Source: an uncultured Lachnospiraceae bacterium (lineage in GTDB: Bacteria; Bacillota; Clostridia; Lachnospirales; Lachnospiraceae). From it: 56,970 nt of DNA. A program made the translations under genes and the position numbers. This document shows, one piece after another, positions 3,159 through 54,114 of the stretch. The stretch lies in the NCBI GenBank assembly GCA_910578085.1, contig CAJTPM010000001.1, forward strand, positions 1-56,970. The letters run 5' to 3'. Every line of letters starts with the position of its first letter. Position 1 is the stretch's first letter. The notes beneath the pieces were generated by a model. That model saw nothing but the letters and a program-made list of their open reading frames with translations, was not told the DNA's origin and ran no database searches.

Positions 3159-3331
3159 CTTAAAATTTTCATCAATACGGCAGCTTTTTTTGTCAGGTAA
3201 TTTATTCAGCAAGAACTGCTGTCTGGCTAAGCTATTGTCACTGTGCTGTCGTAATTCACTTTTTTCTTGCATATCTATGAAAAATGGAGTTTAATATTAG
3301 TGACATTACTTATAATAAGAAAGGACACATT

Positions 3332-4342
3332 ATGAACAAGACTACCATACCGGAAAACTATCAATCCACCTTAAATCTTCACGATACACAGGTAGCGATC
3401 AAACTTGTTAAAGACTGCTTTCAAAATCTTTTAACCGAAAGGCTTCACCTGCAGAGGGTGTCAGCCCCCCTGTTTGTCACGCCGGAATCCGGTCTGAACG
3501 ATAACTTAAACGGTGTAGAACGCCCCGTCGATTTCACAGTAAAAGAACAGAACGAGAGAAAAGCCGAGGTGGTGCAGTCTCTCGCCAAGTGGAAACGTTA
3601 TGCGCTGAAAAAATACGGCTTTCATTACGGGGAAGGTCTCTACACGGATATGAATGCTATCCGCCGGGATGAGTACACTGACAATATCCACTCCATCTTT
3701 GTGGACCAGTGGGACTGGGAGCGGATCATTGCACAGGATGAGCGCAACCTGGACACCCTGAAAACTGTGGTGCGAGACGTTTACCGCGTGCTCTGCAAGA
3801 CAGAAAAATATATGGCGATCCAGTACGACTACATCACCGAGATTCTGCCAAAGGATATTTTCTTTATTACGACCCAGGAGCTGGAGGATTTGTATCCCGA
3901 TGCCACGCCTAAGCAGCGTGAATACAATATCACAAAGGAAAAAGGCGCTGTCTGCCTGATGCAGATCGGCGATAAACTGGCCTCCGGGGAACGCCACGAC
4001 GGCAGAGCGCCGGACTATGACGACTGGGCATTAAATGCCGACATTATCGTTTACTACCCGGTTTTGGACATCGCCTTAGAGTTATCCTCCATGGGCATCC
4101 GGGTAGATGAGAATTCCCTGAAAGAGCAGTTGAAAAAGGCCGGCTGCGAGGACCGCGCCGAACTCCCCTTCCAGAAAGCCATTCTGGAAAAAGAACTTCC
4201 TTATACCATAGGCGGCGGTATCGGCCAGTCCAGGATCTCTATGTTTTTCCTGCGCAAAGCCCATATCGGGGAAGTGCAGAGTTCCATCTGGCCTGAGGAG
4301 ACGGTGAGGCTGATGGAAGAACGTGAGATAAAGCTTTTATAA
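3332..4342 (+). CDS. asnA: Aspartate--ammonia ligase
   Basis: Class II aaRS-like AsnA signature (MNKTTIPENYQSTLNLHDTQVAIKLVKDCF...SAPLFV...GGGIGQSR). ATG at 3332 preferred over upstream ORF start because AAAGGA ribosome-binding site precedes it. Confidence 0.8.
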   Translation: MNKTTIPENYQSTLNLHDTQVAIKLVKDCFQNLLTERLHLQRVSAPLFVTPESGLNDNLNGVERPVDFTVKEQNERKAEVVQSLAKWKRYALKKYGFHYGEGLYTDMNAIRRDEYTDNIHSIFVDQWDWERIIAQDERNLDTLKTVVRDVYRVLCKTEKYMAIQYDYITEILPKDIFFITTQELEDLYPDATPKQREYNITKEKGAVCLMQIGDKLASGERHDGRAPDYDDWALNADIIVYYPVLDIALELSSMGIRVDENSLKEQLKKAGCEDRAELPFQKAILEKELPYTIGGGIGQSRISMFFLRKAHIGEVQSSIWPEETVRLMEEREIKLL

Positions 4343-13573: not shown

Positions 13574-14074
13574 ATGGAAATCGAACGCAAATTTTTATTA
13601 AGAAAGATACCGGAAAACCTGGACAGTTATCCTTACCATTTGATCGAGCAGGCCTATTTATGCGTAACACCTGTTATTCGAATCCGCAGACAGGACGACG
13701 AGTATTATTTGACTTACAAGGGAAGCGGTATGATGAGCCGAGAAGAATATAATCTGCCTTTGACAAAAGAGGCCTATGAACATCTGCTGCCAAAATCTGA
13801 CGGCAATGTCATATCTAAAAAAAGGTATCTGATTCCTTTGTCATCCGAAGAAATCAACCCGGAATGCCTGTCACTTTTGGGTGACACTGCTCTCATCATA
13901 GAACTGGATGAGTTTGCGCCCCCTTTTGCGCCGCTTCTTCTGGCGGAGATAGAATTTCCCACCGAGGAAGCTGCAAACGCCTTTCAGATGCCGGACTGGT
14001 TTTTGGAGGATGTGACTCAGGATGTCAGATACCATAATTCTTATATGTCAGCAATGCATCTTTCCCAGGCATAA
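13574..14074 (+). CDS. CYTH-domain (triphosphate tunnel metalloenzyme) protein
   Basis: N-terminal EIERKFLL motif (CYTH ExExK). 166 aa. Confidence 0.7.
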   Translation: MEIERKFLLRKIPENLDSYPYHLIEQAYLCVTPVIRIRRQDDEYYLTYKGSGMMSREEYNLPLTKEAYEHLLPKSDGNVISKKRYLIPLSSEEINPECLSLLGDTALIIELDEFAPPFAPLLLAEIEFPTEEAANAFQMPDWFLEDVTQDVRYHNSYMSAMHLSQA

Positions 14075-14487
14075 TGTATCACCTGTGAAAGACTTTTCTG
14101 AAATTGTCAGCTTTTTCAAACATATTTCCGAAAAAACTCCAACTTTTTTAACGGCTTTTCGCACCTGTCTATAACTTCTTCTGATATTAAAACAATAACT
14201 CTACGGCTCCTGTCAGCCCGGAGTCCGCCCCTAACTCTGTCTGATAAAACTGAACCTCAAATTCCGTAGTCTGGTAGCGTCTGAACTGCTCTTCCACTTT
14301 TTTGATCAGCTTATCCCCCATCGCCTACAGGCGGCTCTATCATTACCTGATGGAAAATCCTCTGCAATATTTTTTTCTTGCATCCAGCGTAAATGTAAAC
14401 CCGAACCCTCTCTGTCCCGTGGGAAGAAATATCCATTCTGTTTTAGACGGCAGGCCCGGGCTTACCTTTTGTCCACAGATAATCCTT

Positions 14488-15591
14488 TTACCGTCCCGTC
14501 CCCATCATCTTCCCCAGCTGTTCCACGATGCCGGCGCTGCCGTTCACGGAGATCTCGCCGACCTTTTCACAGATCCGCTCCAGATACTCCAGTTCTTTCA
14601 GCTTGTAGAGCGTCTGGTTCTCCTCCATGAGTTTCGCTGTATTGAGGAGCGATCTGGTGGAAGCCACCTCCTCCCTTCTGGAGATAACGTTTGCCTGCGC
14701 CGTCTTCTCCGCTACAAGGACTTTGTTCATGATCTCCCTGATCTCCCCGGGCAGTATGATATCCCTGATGCCGGCGGACACGAAATTCACGCAGAACATG
14801 TTCTCCCGTTCCTTAAGCGCCCCAAAGATCTCTTTGGAGATCCGGTCCTTCGCCTCCAGTATCTCATCCAGCTTGTAGTTACCCACAATCTCCCGGATGG
14901 CCAGCTGCACCGCAGGGTAAAGCTGGGCTTTCAGATCAGAGACCGTCTCCACAAACTCCACCGCATCCCGCACTTTGTACATGCATGCCACGTTCATCCG
15001 AATGCCGATCTTATCCTTTGTCAGGATCTCCTGTCCCAGGATATCTAACTCCTTCTGCTTCATATCGATGACGGTACAGGTCACGATGTGGTTGTAATTC
15101 CAGAACCGGTACACACCCTTAGAGAGCGGCTCCTGCATGACATTGTCGTAGTAGACAAGGCCCACCTCGCCCTCGCCCACCCGTACTTCCGTGTAGTACT
15201 TCATCGGAACCATGGAGAGCATCTGTTTCGTGACCTCTGCGCCGATCAGTGTCTCCTCCATGGAGACAATTTTCATCCCGTACTTGTCAAACACGTTCCA
15301 GAAAACATACTCTTTCCTCGTCGCAAAGGAAGTGAGCTTCCCGTTCATATAGATAAACCCCAGCGAACCGTCCGGTATTTCCATATGTACCGTGGCCTCC
15401 CGAAAGGCGGGATCTCTTTCCAGTATCTGGCAGGGCAGACCCAGATAGTTCATCTCGCCCGACATCTCCTCGATCTGCACCGTATAACCTGCTATCTGAG
15501 GAAAATGATAGGTCCCCGCCGTGATCATTTTCTGAAACACGCCGTTTTTTAATACAAATCCTGCCTGATTATCTCTGATGATATACTTCAT
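14488..15591 (-). CDS. SPFH/band-7 domain protein with N-terminal duplicated beta-rich domains
   Basis: C-terminal half (AVQLAIREIVGNYKLDEIL...EIMNKVLVAEKTAQANVISRREEVASTR...) is typical stomatin/flotillin-like SPFH. Confidence 0.7.
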   Translation of the reverse strand: MKYIIRDNQAGFVLKNGVFQKMITAGTYHFPQIAGYTVQIEEMSGEMNYLGLPCQILERDPAFREATVHMEIPDGSLGFIYMNGKLTSFATRKEYVFWNVFDKYGMKIVSMEETLIGAEVTKQMLSMVPMKYYTEVRVGEGEVGLVYYDNVMQEPLSKGVYRFWNYNHIVTCTVIDMKQKELDILGQEILTKDKIGIRMNVACMYKVRDAVEFVETVSDLKAQLYPAVQLAIREIVGNYKLDEILEAKDRISKEIFGALKERENMFCVNFVSAGIRDIILPGEIREIMNKVLVAEKTAQANVISRREEVASTRSLLNTAKLMEENQTLYKLKELEYLERICEKVGEISVNGSAGIVEQLGKMMGTGR

Positions 15592-16027
15592 CTTGACACC
15601 TCCCTGTATTAATGATCATTTTTCTTTGTTTTTTCTTCAATTACAATACTTTCTATCCCTCATTCATCCATCTTTTGCGGAAAACCGGTTGAGCAGGTTG
15701 TGGGGAGAAAGGACCGTTTGTCCTGATATTTTCTCCGATCCCGCAGATTTATGCTCCGCCTGGCATCTTCTGACTGACAGATCCTGTCAGCAGTATTTGC
15801 CGGACAGATTTCGTCACCCGAAACTGCCCTACAGCTTCTGCCCGGTACGTCTCACCGGACATTCTCTGCCCCGCAGTTTCTATCCGGATGCTGTAAACTG
15901 CCGGATCATCAAAAATATTCTCCACAGACCGCTGTTTCCCCTTCCATCCTGCGGTATCCCCGACCTTCTGGCAAAAGACGGACTGGCATCTGCTTTCGCT
16001 TATGCCTGAAATCGGGATAAAAGTATT

Positions 16028-16165
16028 TGATTTGCGCGGATTCGAACCGCAGACTTTACAGGTCTTGCCATTTTGTTGTGCGCTTTACCAACTAAGCTAC
16101 CGTTTACACGGGAGGGATTTGAACCCCCGAAAACACAAATCCTTCTTAACCCTACGTTAAGTCTG
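16028..16165 (-). ncRNA. Non-canonical tRNA-like RNA with two T-arm modules (candidate Y-RNA-like tRNA mimic, or degenerate tRNA genes)
   Basis: Minus-strand read contains a D-arm-like TAGCTTAGTTGGTAAAGCG, a hairpin agac-CTGTAAA-gtct, T-arm gcgg-TTCGAAT-ccgc, and a second T-arm ggggg-TTCAAAT-ccctc. Acceptor strands cannot be paired and there is no room for a variable loop, so neither copy is a canonical tRNA. Sits 170 nt downstream of rtcB. Confidence 0.4.
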
Positions 16166-16368
16166 GTGAAATATTTATGGCATACCGGACGGCACGCCGC
16201 CGGCACCGCCGGGCAGGAAGTACCTTCCAGATGCCCGCGCGTTATAAATTATTTCCTTCCTTTCATAGCACTGCCACGAATTACCGATGCAGTGCGAAAC
16301 CGTAACCGAATTGCCAGTCTGACTGAAAAATCAACCTCCTGTCTGCTGACAAATTCCTTTTTGGCATA

Positions 16369-17601
16369 CTAGCCCTTCACAACGCCCACAGTCTTTAATT
16401 TCCTCACAGGCGTAACCATATCCTGCTGCTGTTCCATCACCTGATCGATATCCTTGTAAGCGAACCGGCACTCCTCGGCCACATCGTTTTTCTTCCGTTT
16501 TCCCAGCACCACATCCTGCTCCTTCAGATCCACCATAACCTGCTCGATGCTGAACGCTTTCATGGCCCCCGATCTGGAATAGCTTCTGCCCGCCCCGTGG
16601 GAAGAAGTGCAGAAGGATTCTTTATTTCCCTTTCCCTCCACCACATAGCTGTAGGAACCCATGGCCCCGGGTATCACGGCCATCTCTCCTTCGCGTACTC
16701 TTGTGGCTCCTTTTCTGTGCACCCACACATTTTCATGATAGTGATTCTCCAACGATGCATAATTGTGATGGCAGTTGATCTCCTCTCCGAATTCCACGGT
16801 GTGATCCGTATGCTTCTCAATCAGCTCCTTTACCGTCGCGCAGGTCTTATGGAGCATTCGTTCTCTGTTCTCAAAGGCATAATCCAAAGCCAGGTTCATC
16901 CAGTTGATATACTGCTGCCCCTCCGCAGACTGCACAGGCAGGAAGGCCAGATGATACTCATCCTTCACTTCGCTGTACCATGTCTGATTGAGTTCTCTCG
17001 CTATCCCATGGAAGTGATCGCAGATCGCCTTCCCGAGATGGCGGCTTCCGGAATGGATCATGATACACAAAAATCCATCCTGATCCTCCTGCAGCTCAAT
17101 AAAATGATTGCCGCCCCCCAAACTCCCCACCTGAAAGTAACCGTCATCGATCAGGGGCAGAAGCTCCGGATTCTGTTCATATTTTTCCATCTCCTGTTTT
17201 GCCAGGTCAAGCACCGCGGATTCCTGCGGCGTCTTATACCGCTCCGTATTTAACGGAATGGACCGCATGATATTTCCGATAATGGCCTGGATTAACGTCC
17301 CGTTCCCGGTCTGGATCCCACGGATATCCTCCACCCGAATATTGGTCGGCACAAAATCCATACCGCAGCCGATGTCCACGCCCACCGCGTTGGGAATGAC
17401 CACATCCTTCGCCGCAATCACGCCGCCGATGGGCATCCCCTTCCCCGTGTGGGTATCCGGCATCAGGCACACCCATTTATGTAAAAACGGAAGCTGCGAC
17501 AGATGATATGCCTGTTCCAGACAGCTCTCCTCCAGCTGACTGATATCTTTCAACCATATTTTGATTGGTAATCTCGTTTTTTCATTACATATTACAAACA
17601 T
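16369..17601 (-). CDS. rtcB: RNA-splicing ligase RtcB (3'-phosphate/5'-OH RNA ligase)
   Basis: 410 aa with RtcB metal and GMP ligands (PDTHTGKGMPIGGV, GVDIGCGM, NHYHENVWVHRKGA, HGAGR). GAAGGAGG ribosome-binding site. Confidence 0.9.
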   Translation of the reverse strand: MFVICNEKTRLPIKIWLKDISQLEESCLEQAYHLSQLPFLHKWVCLMPDTHTGKGMPIGGVIAAKDVVIPNAVGVDIGCGMDFVPTNIRVEDIRGIQTGNGTLIQAIIGNIMRSIPLNTERYKTPQESAVLDLAKQEMEKYEQNPELLPLIDDGYFQVGSLGGGNHFIELQEDQDGFLCIMIHSGSRHLGKAICDHFHGIARELNQTWYSEVKDEYHLAFLPVQSAEGQQYINWMNLALDYAFENRERMLHKTCATVKELIEKHTDHTVEFGEEINCHHNYASLENHYHENVWVHRKGATRVREGEMAVIPGAMGSYSYVVEGKGNKESFCTSSHGAGRSYSRSGAMKAFSIEQVMVDLKEQDVVLGKRKKNDVAEECRFAYKDIDQVMEQQQDMVTPVRKLKTVGVVKG

Positions 17602-17659
17602 GTTCGCGCCTCCTTCTCTTCGTTTCTTCCGTCTTACGTTTCCTGCTTCTCTCGATCTG

Positions 17660-17705
17660 TGCCTATTATAGGAAACATTTTCCGGAGAATCATTTCAAAA
17701 AAGTT
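17660..17705 (-). promoter_or_regulatory. Candidate rtcB promoter: perfect -10 TATAAT with poor -35
   Basis: Minus-strand TATAAT at 17665-17670 with upstream tgattc. The weak -35 suggests activator dependence. Confidence 0.35.
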
Positions 17706-17803
17706 GCGAAGTGTAGTAAAATATAGATAATATTGAATACAAACGAAATTTTGCAAAACTGATATCGGCAATTTGCCATACATTACATTTAAGGGGAAAA
17801 ATC

Positions 17804-19117
17804 ATGTCCGATTTTCAGGAACTGATAAAAAGTTTTCCAAAAACAAGGGAATACGTCCGGGATTTTTTCGTCTACGGTTTTAAAACCAGAGAGGAATTCA
17901 GGGAAAAAAGCCCCCGCACCTACGACAACGAACGCAGGCGCCTGGAAAGCTGGCTCGGGGATTATGTACGGAAGGACTATGTCTCAAGGAGTTCCAACAT
18001 CTCTCAGGGAGTCAATATCTCCCAGGGAGTCAATATCTCCCAGGGAGTCAATATCTCCCAGGGAGTCAATATCTCCCTTGCTATAGACAGCAACCTTCTC
18101 GACACCAACCCGTTATTTCAGGTATGGAAGACGAAGAGTTTCACCGACAACGATATCGTGCTGCACTTTCTGATACTGGATCTGCTGTCAGACAGCAGAG
18201 AACTGACCGCCGAGGAGATCACGGAACATCTGCTCGATGAATACGAAGCGCTGTTCGATGTTCAGACCGTCAGGAGAAAATGCAATGCCTACGAGAAAGA
18301 GGGCCTGTTACAGAAAAAGAAAGTCGGAAAAACCATTGTCTTTTCTCTGAACCTCTCCCTGATCTCCTGGATAAGAGACCGGGAAAACATGGCGGACGCG
18401 CTTTCTTTTTATCAGATAGCGGAAAGTTTCGGCGTTGTTGGAAATTATCTGACCGAAAAACTGGATCACCGTAATCAAAGCTTCCGGGCAAAACACAGTT
18501 TCTGCGTACATACCCTGGAAGATGAGATCCTCCTGAAGCTTCTGGACGCCATGAACGGGAAGCAGGAAGTGCATCTGGAAATGAAAAGTTCCAGGCGCGG
18601 CACTGCAAATACTGCGGACTGTACGCCCCTGCAGATCTTCACCAGCACAAGAAGCGGCAGACGTTTTCTGTGCGGTTATGTCAAACACAGCAGGCGCTTT
18701 ACCTGTTATCGGCTGGACACGATCAGGACTGTCACACCCCTGCAGCGGTTGCCGAAATATGATGAACTGCTCTCCATACTTGACCGAAACAGAGAACATC
18801 TCTGGGGTGTATCTTTTCATGGCGGCAGCCGCCATCTGGAAAAACTGACTATGAAACTGCAGGTTTTCGCGCCTCGCGAACAGTATATCGTCAACCGCCT
18901 GAAACAGGAAGGCCGGCACGGCACGGTCACAAAACTGGAACAGAACGTCTATCAGTACGAGATTGAGGTCTTCGACTGCAACGAGATGCTGCCCTGGATC
19001 CGCACTTTTATCGGCAGGATCCTGTCGCTCACATGCACGGATAAGTCCGTGGAACAGCTCTTTTATCGGGATCTGCAGACCATGTACCGAATGTATCAGA
19101 TAGAGGAAACAAAATAG
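17804..19117 (+). CDS. WYL-domain transcriptional regulator (HTH-WYL-WCX-like), paralogue 1
   Basis: WYL-like core RRFLCGYVKHSRRFTCYRLDTIRTV (compare GRWYL.AY...FRLDRI). N-terminal HTH-like region. Contains the in-frame ISQGVN tandem repeat. Divergent from rtcB. Confidence 0.6.
   Translation: MSDFQELIKSFPKTREYVRDFFVYGFKTREEFREKSPRTYDNERRRLESWLGDYVRKDYVSRSSNISQGVNISQGVNISQGVNISQGVNISLAIDSNLLDTNPLFQVWKTKSFTDNDIVLHFLILDLLSDSRELTAEEITEHLLDEYEALFDVQTVRRKCNAYEKEGLLQKKKVGKTIVFSLNLSLISWIRDRENMADALSFYQIAESFGVVGNYLTEKLDHRNQSFRAKHSFCVHTLEDEILLKLLDAMNGKQEVHLEMKSSRRGTANTADCTPLQIFTSTRSGRRFLCGYVKHSRRFTCYRLDTIRTVTPLQRLPKYDELLSILDRNREHLWGVSFHGGSRHLEKLTMKLQVFAPREQYIVNRLKQEGRHGTVTKLEQNVYQYEIEVFDCNEMLPWIRTFIGRILSLTCTDKSVEQLFYRDLQTMYRMYQIEETK
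17995..18082 (+). repeat. 18-bp in-frame tandem repeat (~4.7 copies) encoding (N)ISQGV
   Basis: caa(c/t)atctc(t/c)cagggagt repeated head to tail. Three central copies are identical. Confidence 0.9.
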
Positions 19118-19137: not shown

Positions 19138-20283
19138 ATGGAACTCTTCTCAGAAATATACAGCTGTTATTATCAGCTATTACGACATATCCTGTGCAGT
19201 CAGAATGCCCTGACCATGCAGGAGATCCGTGAACAGATCTCTCAGGAAGGCTTTGGAGAAAGTATGCTCTCCATCATCCCCAAACTGGAAGACGGCTCCT
19301 GGAATCTGTTCAAAAAGGATGGGGATCTGTACCGCTCAAAAATCTCCTCTGCCTTCACCGTCCCCCTGTCCGCACTTGAAAAGTCCTATCTCAAAGCGCT
19401 GCTTCTCGATCCCCGCATCGGCCTTTTTCTTGACAGGGAGCAGGTGGAATACCTGCAAAACGCACTGGCTGCGGTCTCCCCTCTCTGGAAACCGGAACAG
19501 TTTTACTGTTTCGACCGGTTTTCGGACGGCGATCCTTACGCCGATGAAAACTACCGCTCCTGTTTCCGCACCCTGCTGCAGGCACAGAAGCAGAACCGGT
19601 ATGTGGACATCGACTACACTTCCCCGAAGGGCAACCGCTTACACCACCACTATGTCCCCGCCCGTCTGGAATACTCGGTGAAAAATGATAAGTTCAGGCT
19701 CCTGGCTCTGCAGCCTGTTTCGTCTTCTTTCGCTCTGCGCTCCCGCGGCAAAAACCGGAATCTTGCACACTGGAAGACCGATGCTCCTTTGATGAATTGC
19801 GCCGCACTGCAGAGCACGCAGGAAAACTCAGTTGATTCCTGCCCGAAGAATAATCTTTCCCGGGCGGATGCAAGTACACTGCGCCATGCGCAGGAAACCA
19901 CGAATTTCAAACTGGAGATCCTCAACATATCCCGCATCCGCAGCGTCAGCCTGCTGGAAAAAAGACTCCCCGCCCCCGCGGATCTGAACGCCATCATCAG
20001 ACGCACCTACTACAGGGAGCCCCTGAAGCTGCGTATCGTCAACAGGCGCAACGCTCTCGAGCGCGCCATGCTGCACTTTGCAAACTATGAAAAAAACACT
20101 ACAAAAATAGATGAGGACACCTACGAATGCCTCATCTACTATAATCAGGGCATGGAGACCGAGTTGTTAATCGAAGTCATGTCCTTCGGCCCCATGCTCC
20201 AGGTGATCGGTAACGACAGATTTTTAAATCTGTTGAAAAACAGGCTGCACAGACAGTATGGTATCGCGCCGTCTGTTCAGTAA
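19138..20283 (+). CDS. WYL-like regulator paralogue 2 (PafC-like partner)
   Basis: 381 aa, 20 nt downstream of paralogue 1. Degenerate WYL-like segment HHHYVPARLEYSVKNDKFRLLALQ. C-terminal region resembles a WCX extension. Confidence 0.45.
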   Translation: MELFSEIYSCYYQLLRHILCSQNALTMQEIREQISQEGFGESMLSIIPKLEDGSWNLFKKDGDLYRSKISSAFTVPLSALEKSYLKALLLDPRIGLFLDREQVEYLQNALAAVSPLWKPEQFYCFDRFSDGDPYADENYRSCFRTLLQAQKQNRYVDIDYTSPKGNRLHHHYVPARLEYSVKNDKFRLLALQPVSSSFALRSRGKNRNLAHWKTDAPLMNCAALQSTQENSVDSCPKNNLSRADASTLRHAQETTNFKLEILNISRIRSVSLLEKRLPAPADLNAIIRRTYYREPLKLRIVNRRNALERAMLHFANYEKNTTKIDEDTYECLIYYNQGMETELLIEVMSFGPMLQVIGNDRFLNLLKNRLHRQYGIAPSVQ

Positions 20284-51814: not shown

Positions 51815-51951
51815 GAAAGTTATTACAACTTCTCCTACCGTGCTTTATAGTATAGCTTCTTACAGGCAATTTTACAGCACAGCGTGGAAAGTTGAAACAC
51901 TTTCATCACTATTTGTGCCGTCAACTGAAAGGCGGCGGAATGGAGATTTTT

Positions 51952-54114
51952 ATGAAATTTCAATCAGTAAAAGAAACAGCAAAGCGTTTCCATATATCAG
52001 AGCGCCGGGTACAGAAACTCTGTGAGACCGGCAGAATTGACGGCGCCCGGATGGTCAGCAATGTCTGGTTGATACCGGACACTGCGACGAAACCGGCGGA
52101 CGAGCGCACTGTCATTGGTGACAAAGATTTACTCTCACTTTCTGATTTGTGCAGGGAACTATCCATTTCGACAGCTACCGGACGTAATTGGCTAAAACTT
52201 GGAAAACTGGCACCGTCTTCTGAAATAAAGAAAACGCCCTTTTTCAGCAGGGAATATGCCATTCAAATGAAAGCTGACATTGCGAATGGAAAAAACGCCG
52301 CCTTAAAAAGCCGTCGGAACAAAAAATACGTTTCCGGCAACACCCTTTACCGCTCCTATGTATCGGACACCTCCTCCAACCTGTCAGCGGTGCAGGCTGT
52401 TCTTGACTGCATAGAAGAAAAAAGCATCGAAATCACAGATGAGATACTGCATATGCTCATCGCCGAATGTGCGGTTCAGCTCATATTAAATAAAAACCAT
52501 GATAAAACATCTTCTGATTGTCTGTCGGGGTATCTTCATGGAACATTAAAAAGTAAATCCTTACCCCTGGTTGATGATCTGATCTCTCCCTATCCTCAGA
52601 TCGACAGAGTGGTTGGTCTGCATACAGACCTGTTAAACATAAAATATCAATATGAAGAGGGAGAAGATCTGTTGGGTCTTCTTTACATATCGTTGAAAAA
52701 TATCGGCAACAGAAAAGCTACTGGTTCCTACTACACGCCCACCGCCGTGGTGCAAAAATTGTGCCGCCGCCTTTTTTCCATAAATGAAGCTTCCGGAAAA
52801 GATGTACTTGATCCGTGCTGCGGGACAGGAAACTTTCTTCTTCAGCTCCCGCCGCAGATCGGGTTTGAACATGTCTACGGAAATGACAATGATCCCGTCA
52901 GCGTAAAAATTGCCAGAATCAATTTCTCGCTGAAATATGGTATTTCCGATCCGGCCGTCATCTATTCGCACATTACGGAGAGAGACTATCTTTCTTCCGA
53001 TCCTGCGCGGCAATTCGATTTTATCATCGGCAATCCGCCCTGGGGTTATGATTTTACCGCGCCACAAAAAACGCAGCTGAGAAGCAGATTTAAATCTGCC
53101 GCAGGCAACAGTATAGAATCTTATGACGTATTTGTGGAGCAGGCTTTGTCTGACTTAAAAGAGGGCGGAATACTTTCCTTTGTTTTGCCGGAAGCTATTT
53201 TAAATGTCAAGACCCATACGCCGATCCGCGGTATCATACTGGAACGCTGTGCCTTTCAGTACCTGGAATTTCTGGGAAATGCTTTTGATCAGGTACAGTG
53301 CCCCTGCATTATTTTACAGGCTGTCTGCACTGAAACCACATTTCGCAGTCAGGATATGCTGGTCTTTGACGGAACCCACGAATACTCCATTCAGTGCGAA
53401 CGCAAAGTAAATGCAGATTGTTTCAGCTTTTCCACGACAGACGAGGAATACCATATTTTGGAGAAAATGGACAACCTGCAGGGCAAACTCACTCTGCGCG
53501 GGAACGCTGACTTTGCGCTGGGAATTGCTACCGGTAACAATAAAGATTATATTTCTCAGACAAAAAGTAAAGAAAATGAAATGATCCTGAAAGGATCTGA
53601 TCTGCGGAAATTCAGATTTACCCCTTCTGAAAATTACATTGTATTCAACCCGGAATCCTTTCAACAGGTCGCACCCACCGAATATTACCGCGCTCCCGAA
53701 AAGCTGCTGTACCGCTTCATCTGCAAGCAGCTGGTTTTTGCATACGATAACAGACAGATATTGTCTTTAAACAGCTGTAATATCCTGATCCCGAAAATAC
53801 ATGATTTCAGTATAAAATATATTCTGGCTGTCTTAAATTCCAGAACCGTTCAGTTTTATTTTCGAAAACAGTTTAACTCCGTTAAGGTGCTGCGGGCCCA
53901 CCTTGAAAGGCTGCCCATAGCGTTTACGGATACAGATTCCCAGAATCAGGTTGTAAACATAGTCGACGGTATTCTCGAAACCTCTGATAAAACCACTGTT
54001 ACTGATCTGTACAATGAACTTGACAGGAAAATTGCCGATCTCTATGGATTGACTCCCGAGGAATATCGTATCGTCAAATCCACCATGGAGGATGAAAATT
54101 TATTTCTTTACTGA
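51952..54114 (+). CDS. N6-adenine DNA methyltransferase (gamma-class, NPPW) with N-terminal HTH_17 domain and C-terminal TRD
   Basis: Motif I DPCCGTGNFLL, motif IV IIGNPPWGY. N-terminus MKFQSVKETAKRFHISERRVQKLCETGRI...WLIP is homologous to the small HTH protein at 35134-35325. ATG at 51952 has a GGAG ribosome-binding site. Confidence 0.8.
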   Translation: MKFQSVKETAKRFHISERRVQKLCETGRIDGARMVSNVWLIPDTATKPADERTVIGDKDLLSLSDLCRELSISTATGRNWLKLGKLAPSSEIKKTPFFSREYAIQMKADIANGKNAALKSRRNKKYVSGNTLYRSYVSDTSSNLSAVQAVLDCIEEKSIEITDEILHMLIAECAVQLILNKNHDKTSSDCLSGYLHGTLKSKSLPLVDDLISPYPQIDRVVGLHTDLLNIKYQYEEGEDLLGLLYISLKNIGNRKATGSYYTPTAVVQKLCRRLFSINEASGKDVLDPCCGTGNFLLQLPPQIGFEHVYGNDNDPVSVKIARINFSLKYGISDPAVIYSHITERDYLSSDPARQFDFIIGNPPWGYDFTAPQKTQLRSRFKSAAGNSIESYDVFVEQALSDLKEGGILSFVLPEAILNVKTHTPIRGIILERCAFQYLEFLGNAFDQVQCPCIILQAVCTETTFRSQDMLVFDGTHEYSIQCERKVNADCFSFSTTDEEYHILEKMDNLQGKLTLRGNADFALGIATGNNKDYISQTKSKENEMILKGSDLRKFRFTPSENYIVFNPESFQQVAPTEYYRAPEKLLYRFICKQLVFAYDNRQILSLNSCNILIPKIHDFSIKYILAVLNSRTVQFYFRKQFNSVKVLRAHLERLPIAFTDTDSQNQVVNIVDGILETSDKTTVTDLYNELDRKIADLYGLTPEEYRIVKSTMEDENLFLY

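Follow-up and report, generated by a model that had tools for sequence, protein, structure and literature searches.

The locus described here lies within a window of 56,970 nucleotides (nt) from contig CAJTPM010000001.1 of an uncultured Lachnospiraceae bacterium; "the window" designates this whole stretch throughout. On the minus strand, a gene for the RNA ligase RtcB is followed by a long spacer and then by a gene for a protein of the SPFH/Band-7 type, named slipin in the NCBI protein family nomenclature. The spacer is predicted to specify a large structured RNA, at the centre of which lies a module resembling a transfer RNA (tRNA) with its parts in permuted order. Bacterial RtcB repair answers damaged tRNAs, and the element bears on the choice of substrate and on the role of the RNAs and scaffolds encoded in repair operons. 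Band-7-associated RNA has since 2016 been no more than a computational prediction and is missing from Rfam and from genome annotation. The present analysis provides a covariation-backed secondary structure for the form found in gut Clostridia, an RNA several-fold larger than a tRNA, and delimits domains that stay constant while the tRNA modules vary. The two genes and the tRNA-like elements are listed below in the order of the minus strand.

16369-17601 (minus strand): rtcB, RNA 3'-phosphate/5'-OH ligase (Pfam RtcB, 363 bits), same-strand gene upstream of the RNA
16076-16138 (minus strand): circularly permuted tRNA mimic of the YrlA type (YrlA alignment, RNAalifold on alignment A1, pair counts)
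16138-16134 with 16080-16076 (minus strand): "anticodon" stem of the mimic, 5 base pairs (bp), TTGTG with CACAA, made by the flanking strands
16133-16129 (minus strand): variable loop of the mimic
16128-16112 (minus strand): T-arm 1, GGGGG-TTCAAAT-CCCTC
16111-16100 (minus strand): 4-bp acceptor of the mimic with a GTAA (GNRA) loop, CCGT-GTAA-ACGG
16099-16082 (minus strand): U8-A9 (16099-16098) and D-arm (16097-16082), together TAGCTTAGTTGGTAAAGC
16081 (minus strand): R26, a purine
16051-16065 (minus strand): anticodon-arm-like hairpin, AGAC-CTGTAAA-GTCT, with a covarying stem (AU/GC at two pairs)
16036-16050 (minus strand): T-arm 2, GCGG-TTCGAAT-CCGC, 100% paired, 2 compensatory pairs
14488-15591 (minus strand): SPFH/Band-7 "slipin" gene (Pfam Band_7, 97 bits, residues 137-308), directly downstream of the RNA

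Permuted tRNA-like core

An earlier note on this DNA, made from the letters alone, had pointed to a D-arm, two T-arms and a hairpin with a 7-nt loop between 16028 and 16165. Every one of these motifs was found in its place on the minus strand, with the hairpin abutting T-arm 2 with no linker. The T-loop pattern GGTTCRAWTCC occurs twice in the 57-kilobase (kb) window, both times within the element, as compared to 0.18 occurrences expected by chance; the D-arm pattern occurs once, with 0.00 expected. ARAGORN made no tRNA call in the whole window, nor in the matching intergenic stretch at 43 related loci, and the Rfam tRNA model (RF00005) scored 24.7 bits against a gathering threshold of 29, aligning over model positions 7-64 only. 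These results agree with the view, put forward in the note, that no canonical tRNA is present. Searching Rfam at gathering thresholds gave no match. In a permissive local scan, the best match was YrlA, a sub-threshold hit of 34.8 bits (threshold 69; E 9.6e-6) at 16136-16075 spanning model positions 23-88 of 114, which upheld the suggestion of a tRNA-mimicking, YrlA-like identity; the transfer-messenger RNA (tmRNA) model aligned to an 18-nt T-arm alone. In relatives, the YrlA model reached 36.6 bits (locus L021) and 32.3 bits (locus L074). A megablast comparison of the window region with E. coli genomes returned no match.

The comparative evidence came from alignment A1, which comprises 44 distinct sequences over 16140-16030 and covers the mimic and the next two hairpins. 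RNAalifold applied to A1 independently returned the fold drawn by eye, that is, the permuted cloverleaf followed by the two downstream hairpins. Standard pairs make up 99.0% of the 1142 pair cells, versus 27-55% when the partners are slid by 1-3 columns. Compensatory double changes were found at 14 of 26 pairs, touching all six helices. In addition, the Levitt pair 15:48 covaries (G:C in 38 sequences, A:U in 5, U:U in 1), while at the sequence level A14, G18, A21, T54, T55, C56 and A58 are invariant and position 8 is a T in 41 of the 44. Model R1 of the permuted mimic scores 30-51 bits just 5' of slipin in distant Clostridia (loci L066-L076), where AUGAU/AUCAU stands in place of UUGUG/CACAA as a compensatory swap.

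The circularly permuted cloverleaf joins the D-arm to the upstream T-arm, and not to the downstream hairpin and T-arm 2; the two modules into which the note had parsed the element were re-cut accordingly. Absence of an acceptor pairing and of space for a variable loop, as claimed there, holds for a canonical reading; it does not for the permuted one, in which the acceptor is the 4-bp GNRA-capped helix at 16111-16100 and the variable loop has 5 nt (16133-16129). The canonical reading itself, obtained by aligning the D-arm, the hairpin and T-arm 2 to the Rfam tRNA model, was rejected: its "anticodon stem" clashes with the covarying AGAC/GTCT hairpin, and it has no acceptor partner. No complement of the acceptor 3' strand was found on the minus strand. 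The loop census showed the anticodon-like hairpin to have mostly a 7-nt loop (range 5-10 nt) in a YU-NNN-AA format, the "anticodon" not being conserved. As read from the aligned sequences, the elements of the core follow one another as they would in a tRNA with its opening in the anticodon loop and its acceptor end sealed, and we hold the structural identification as a whole to be highly probable.

Flanking domains and extent of the RNA

The interval 16028-16165 delimited in the note turned out to represent about one fifth of the conserved element, which measures about 610 nt and has covarying domains on both sides of the core. These are as follows.

16168-16255 (minus strand): 5' domain D1, a three-way junction (covariation in alignments A4 and A5)
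16255-16245 with 16177-16168 (minus strand): closing stem of D1
16236-16211 (minus strand): hairpin P2 of D1
16207-16179 (minus strand): hairpin P3 of D1, with the invariant internal loop GGCGGUGCC...GGUAUNCC
16145-16161 (minus strand): variable hairpin CTTAAC-GTAGG-GTTAAG, present in most near relatives with a varying loop; some have other hairpins or inserts instead
16014-16027 (minus strand): 5' strand of a long-range helix, AATACTTTTATCCC (spliced alignment A7)
15929-16013 (minus strand): 3' domain interior, conserved in 52-60 loci; parts: stem TTTCAGGC/GCCNGAAG, a variable hairpin, invariant GGGGATACCGCAG, purine-rich segment GGAAGGGGAAAC
15720-15925 (minus strand): poorly conserved insert of about 200 nt, largely lineage-specific; nhmmer coverage falls to the closest 17-23 loci
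15645-15659 (minus strand): 3' strand of the long-range helix, GGGATA-G-AAAGTATT, inside the second conserved block; approximate 3' limit of the structured RNA

In nhmmer searches, DNA conservation extended over 16262-15935 in 52-62 loci, and a second block at 15740-15650 was conserved in up to 39 loci. Open reading frames (ORFs) of the spacer match relatives on both strands and in every frame, but as fragments with the frame interrupted, a pattern that reflects conserved DNA and no protein-coding function. A GTG-initiated ORF of 58 amino acids within the 15720-15925 insert is not conserved, and the insert as a whole is missing from compact relatives.

D1 is paired in 96% of cells in alignment A4 (34 sequences), against 34-52% in slid controls, with 9 compensatory pairs; in the model-fitted alignment A5, compensatory changes affect 23 of 29 pairs. 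R2, a covariance model built from D1, placed this domain directly 5' of the mimic in 10 of 15 distant loci searched (L066, L067, L069-L072 and L074-L077). The slipin proteins of distant loci retaining both D1 and the mimic are only 44-48% identical to that of the window.

The two strands of the 14-bp long-range helix are about 355 nt apart in the window. In alignment A7 (33 sequences) the helix is 89% paired, versus 44-57% in slid controls, and 8 of its 14 pairs show compensatory changes; a crude and noisy comparison of duplex energies gave -21.7 kcal/mol for cognate and -19.4 kcal/mol for non-cognate strands. Closure of the 3' domain by a more proximal TATCCC/GGGGATA pairing was considered and rejected: this pairing shows no covariation and cannot form in distant loci, whereas the distal GGGATAAAAGTATT covaries. 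The search for covariation in homologous loci, which the note had recommended, thus yielded compensatory changes in the tRNA-like core, in D1 and in the long-range helix. In the 3' domain interior, pairing is conserved with little covariation; inspection by eye suggests a pairing of the purine-rich GGAAGGAGGAAC with a GTCCTTYCTCC strand lying downstream.

With D1 on the 5' side and the long-range helix on the 3' side, the structured RNA would span about 16255-15645 of the minus strand, or about 610 nt, and about 430 nt in compact relatives, as judged from the alignments. Its 3' end falls about 55 nt before the slipin start codon. A GG(G)AUA(CC) motif recurs three times on the minus strand, as GGUAUGCC in the 5' junction (16184-16179), within the invariant GGGGAUACCGCAG of the 3' domain (15961-15949) and as GGGAUA in the long-range helix (15659-15654). 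An invariant ACCGC could pair with an invariant GCGGU of the 5' junction (16209-16205); because both are invariant, covariation cannot probe this pairing.

Neighbouring genes and related loci

A search with the slipin protein as query provided 80 loci from species genomes, mostly of Lachnospiraceae. In about 55 of them, all from Lachnospiraceae, the order is a divergent WYL gene, rtcB, a long spacer with the RNA, and slipin. In the loci examined the RNA always lies directly 5' of slipin on the same strand. Carriers available in culture include Schaedlerella arabinosiphila DSM 106076 (L026), Sporofaciens musculi WCA-9-b2 (L050) and Petralouisia muris (L048). The link to rtcB drawn in the note is borne out by the synteny in these 55 or so loci; it does not extend to every genome, as RNA and slipin persist without rtcB in some. 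The ligase gene is absent or truncated in L025, L026 and L029, and none is found within 4 kb in L071-L076, where a terminator and a -10-like box precede the RNA. At L074, the one of these loci checked against Pfam, a gene for the RNA 2'-phosphotransferase Tpt1/KptA lies upstream of the RNA, followed by the terminator, and an SbcD-like gene lies downstream. Because both persist without rtcB, RNA and slipin form an invariant couple set in varying RNA-repair contexts. The repair genes that recur beside the RNA are those for RtcB, RlaP and Tpt1/KptA; conflict or restriction genes such as LlaJI/AAA_5 also occur in the neighbourhoods.

The two genes found on the other side of rtcB in the window are as follows.

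17804-19117 (plus strand): WYL-domain ORF, 437 amino acids (Pfam WYL), divergent from rtcB
19138-20283 (plus strand): uncharacterised ORF, 381 amino acids, with no Pfam, NCBIfam or Protein Data Bank (PDB) match

Most loci have this gene pair beside rtcB; in L077-L079 it lies upstream of a set made up of the RNA, slipin and a distant RtcB. The two proteins are probably regulators of the repair operon, replacing RtcR. Among the window ORFs tested, which were the largest ones, none matched TROVE (Ro60). No terminator-like site was found on the minus strand within the region scanned, 14000-18000. In three relatives, genes for tRNA-Glu(UUC) and tRNA-Cys(GCA) lie directly 3' of slipin (L023, 5232-5386; L057, 5319-5606; L058, 5212-5358); there are none in the window.

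The slipin protein has no obvious N-terminal membrane segment. Its C-terminal half (residues 172-341) resembles stomatin and QmcA, whose structure entries were deposited with 16-26 chains each. A protein homologue search identified no other phyla, all relatives among the 120 matches listed being at least 74% identical. With tblastn on a plasmid and chromid collection, full-length homologues of 29-33% identity were found in Burkholderia, Photobacterium and E. coli. The B. cenocepacia locus runs from RtcR through a sigma-54 promoter and a leader of about 500 nt (the RNA) to slipin, RtcB and RlaP. Just 5' of slipin, ARAGORN calls an odd "tRNA" of canonical order, with a 7-bp acceptor, D-arm, GAAA-capped anticodon stem and T-arm, ahead of which lies a mini-unit made of an acceptor and a T-arm. 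Photobacterium has two tandem tRNA-like ARAGORN calls at the equivalent position. The E. coli version, located between the DUF3811 gene and lysC (L081, CP061233.1, 4660-6916), consists of a sigma-54 promoter and, after it, a leader of about 300 nt that has one T-arm, then slipin and the RlaP nucleotidyltransferase gene; no rtcB annotation was found in about 5 kb on either side of slipin. A count over 5426 complete E. coli genomes gave 1632 with this leader, and no RNA feature is annotated under the match. A D1-core-like arrangement, GGTGC(G)CC-hairpin-G(G)TATACC, was recognised by eye in the Burkholderia and Photobacterium leaders; since R2 gives no score to the proteobacterial leaders, it stands as a by-eye observation only. 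Viral contigs searched for slipin contained one truncated locus (34% identity); scanning them with a loose D1 pattern returned chance matches only, with R2 matching 0 of the 80 loci scored.

Relation to known RNAs and possible function

YrlA is described as a circularly permuted tRNA, with the crystal structure of its tRNA-like domain available as PDB 6CU1 (Wang et al. 2018, bioRxiv 10.1101/312249). It comes from an operon transcript by processing and works as a stable ribonucleoprotein (RNP) RNA (Hughes et al. 2020; Wang et al. 2018). The window RNA shares with YrlA (RF02553) the permuted order, in which an anticodon stem made by the flanks is followed by the T-arm, a closed acceptor and the D-arm; it also keeps the elbow nucleotides and the U8, A14 and 15:48 signatures, and the two have the rtcB neighbourhood in common. 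However, the match ends at model positions 23-88 of 114, leaving out the basal helix that binds Ro60, the flanks being occupied by independently closed domains. The gathering score is not reached, and the window acceptor is a 4-bp, GNRA-capped helix. The genes around the RNA are those for RtcB, Band_7 and WYL; no rsr (Ro60/TROVE), the neighbour of YrlA, was found among the largest window ORFs, which were the ones tested. Finally, the window mimic has a three-way junction on its 5' side and, on the other, an additional anticodon-like hairpin, T-arm 2 and a large 3' domain, and its partner is slipin. Canonical tRNA and tmRNA resemble the element in the D- and T-arm consensus, U8, A14, G18, the T54-T55-C56 loop and the Levitt pair; they differ in that the mimic has no 7-bp acceptor formed by the ends, no CCA and no anticodon arm.

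A second point of comparison is b7a-tRNA, which, in the account given by the bioRxiv preprint (10.1101/312249), Burroughs and Aravind predicted in 2016 by genes for Band-7 and RtcB. That account describes b7a-tRNA as strongly resembling authentic tRNA, adds that YrlA occasionally adjoins Band-7, and presents both the b7a-tRNA and the YrlA-Band-7 predictions as unvalidated as of 2018. No later mention of b7a-tRNA was found in the collection of papers searched. Going by this description, the window RNA resembles b7a-tRNA in being tRNA-derived, non-decoding and placed beside a Band-7/SPFH gene in an RtcB neighbourhood. It differs in that the authentic tRNA order with acceptor does not occur in the window lineage, where the element is permuted and never called as a tRNA; the Burkholderia and Photobacterium loci do have that order. 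The window RNA probably corresponds to the case, alluded to in the preprint, of YrlA occasionally next to Band-7. More broadly, it matches, as far as the published description goes, the Clostridia form of the Band-7-associated tRNA-like RNA, whether this is termed b7a-tRNA or "YrlA next to Band-7". The window element is thus a new architectural variant of an RNA class that is predicted, unvalidated and uncatalogued.

Like the window RNA, large ornate bacterial RNAs such as GOLLD, ROOL, OLE and raiA span several hundred nt in multiple, strongly covarying domains, and their biochemical function is unknown. Their Rfam models gave no match even at E <= 10 over 15700-16500. The window RNA differs from them in having a fixed protein-gene partner and recognisable tRNA-derived modules.

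A dimeric-tRNA origin has been proposed for YrlA (Wang et al. 2018, bioRxiv 10.1101/312249). Along the window RNA one finds, in order, what would be the T-arm of a first unit, the acceptor strands of units 1 and 2 fused as a capped hairpin, the D-arm of the second unit, and the leftover anticodon-like hairpin and T-arm of that second unit. To judge from three architectures compared with no phylogeny, we infer that the permuted mimic may have arisen from tandem tRNA-like units such as those of Photobacterium and Burkholderia. A tentative generalisation, which we rate below even chances, is that these RNAs, in which the tRNA-like piece would be just the part that can be recognised, constitute an undescribed class of about 430-610 nt and several domains, acting in Firmicutes and Proteobacteria as the obligate partner of cage-forming slipins that have no obvious membrane segment. 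The class would be defined by a GGUGC(G)CC-hairpin-GGUAUACC protein-binding core and by interchangeable tRNA modules, and the series from the Photobacterium tandem through the Burkholderia mini-unit and capped tRNA to the fused mimic of Lachnospiraceae would be a record of how Y RNAs of the YrlA type originated from dimeric tRNAs.

Taken as a whole, the explanation that we favour, with rather better than even confidence, is that of a large structured RNA located between rtcB and slipin, with the interval as its central module; this RNA would be of the b7a-tRNA type and operate through an RNP. The RNA would be transcribed together with rtcB and slipin, as suggested by the finding of no terminator-like site on this strand within 14000-18000, or, in genomes lacking rtcB, from a promoter of its own. 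It might then assemble with the slipin oligomer, probably via domains other than the tRNA-like ones, for instance the invariant junction GGCGGUGCC...GGUAUACC. The complex would display one or two tRNA-shaped elbows recruiting RtcB or other tRNA-recognising enzymes, by analogy with the Y RNA that tethers Ro60 to an effector; alternatively, the elbows could compete with real tRNAs for a tRNA-cleaving nuclease. Taken by itself, this role of the RNA as an RNP cofactor, drawn from the analogy, is a possibility that we put forward with reserve. The joint derepression of rtcB and a slipin gene in an Anabaena trcR mutant lends it weak circumstantial support. If such an RNA-slipin RNP exists, it would be a second Ro/Y-RNA-like system, and the RNA would be the first RNA ligand for a protein of the SPFH family.

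Several observations weigh against this interpretation. The RNP and its function are inferred throughout. Folding energy of the single sequence is no better than that of shuffled sequences (z = -1.1 and -1.0), and the single-sequence minimum free energy structures are at odds with the covariation. The AlphaFold model of slipin is too poor to search for an RNA-binding surface or a fold (predicted local distance difference test score 56, predicted template modelling score 0.36). T-arm 2 is gone from most distant loci, and L028 and L045 have no tRNA mimic yet keep T-arm 2, D1 and the 3' domain; hence, no tRNA-like module is indispensable. Lastly, a role purely in cis is conceivable, given that the RNA runs collinear with the slipin mRNA, that its end falls about 55 nt short of the start codon and that no terminator-like site was found on this strand within 14000-18000. 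As regards the two mimic-less variants (L028, about 3519-3690; L045, about 3188-3350), both keep the anticodon-like hairpin as well, and both are contigs of metagenome-assembled genomes in which an assembly artefact is possible.

The main rival to the RNP interpretation develops the last of these points. The RNA would be a 5' leader of the slipin mRNA and no free component of an RNP, sensing, for example, damaged or uncharged tRNA, tRNA-binding proteins or, by autoregulation, slipin itself, and controlling slipin translation or transcript stability. Its position directly upstream of slipin, on the same strand in Firmicutes and Proteobacteria, speaks for such a role, as does the finding of no terminator-like site between the two. 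The covarying long-range helix stopping about 55 nt before the start codon fits as well. Where a terminator and a -10-like box lie ahead of the RNA (L071-L076), RNA and slipin would make up one transcription unit, and in Proteobacteria the run is likewise sigma-54 promoter, RNA and slipin. However, a non-exhaustive search revealed no alternative terminator/antiterminator structure and no pairing that would sequester the ribosome-binding site, and the A-rich linker and Shine-Dalgarno sequence fall outside the conserved structure. Moreover, a length of 430-610 nt with up to two tRNA-shaped modules is far above the known size of leaders, and the closest structural relative, YrlA, is a processed, stable RNP RNA. 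Collinearity and the place where the RNA ends make action in cis a contender to be taken seriously, although we rate it as unlikely.

Less probable still is that the RNA serves as a decoy or competitive inhibitor of tRNA-targeting nucleases (anticodon nucleases, colicin-like or phage-induced enzymes), sparing tRNAs while RtcB repairs those already cut. The idea was raised for YrlA's tRNA-like domain by Hughes et al. 2020, and both the YU-NNN-AA format of the second hairpin, with its non-conserved "anticodon", and the restriction or conflict genes of some neighbourhoods, such as LlaJI/AAA_5, would suit it. Yet an anticodon loop is missing altogether from the permuted mimic, the second hairpin has loops of anywhere between 5 and 10 nt, and the strict coupling to slipin and the conserved non-tRNA domains are left unexplained.

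We give very little credence to the view that the RNA gives rise to a functional tRNA whose gene is permuted or split, RtcB circularising or ligating the precursor and RNase P/Z then opening it, as happens with permuted tRNA genes in certain algae. In its favour, the elements follow the order of a permuted tRNA gene, a gene for an RNA ligase lies next to them, and the possibility was mentioned for YrlA by Wang et al. (bioRxiv 10.1101/312249). On the other hand, the acceptor has just 4 bp and a GNRA cap; there is no CCA, no discriminator base and no anticodon loop sequence past the 5-bp stem; the flanks are taken up by other conserved domains; and ARAGORN made no call in 43 loci. The remaining alternative, raised in the note, that these are decayed tRNA genes or functionless remnants of a tRNA-borne attachment site, could invoke tRNA-derived sequence with no acceptor pairing and the true tRNA-Glu and tRNA-Cys genes that lie directly downstream of slipin in the three relatives L023, L057 and L058, but is effectively refuted by conservation in more than 55 species with compensatory changes in the main helices and covariation of the 15:48 tertiary pair, by the fixed synteny and the embedding in further covarying domains, and, as regards spread through a few recent transfers, by the 44-48% slipin identity of distant loci.

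Elsewhere in the window, and with no relation to the RNA, lies an ORF of 740 amino acids (51892-54114, plus strand) whose N6_Mtase, Eco57I and TaqI_C domains point to a type IIG-like restriction-modification enzyme.

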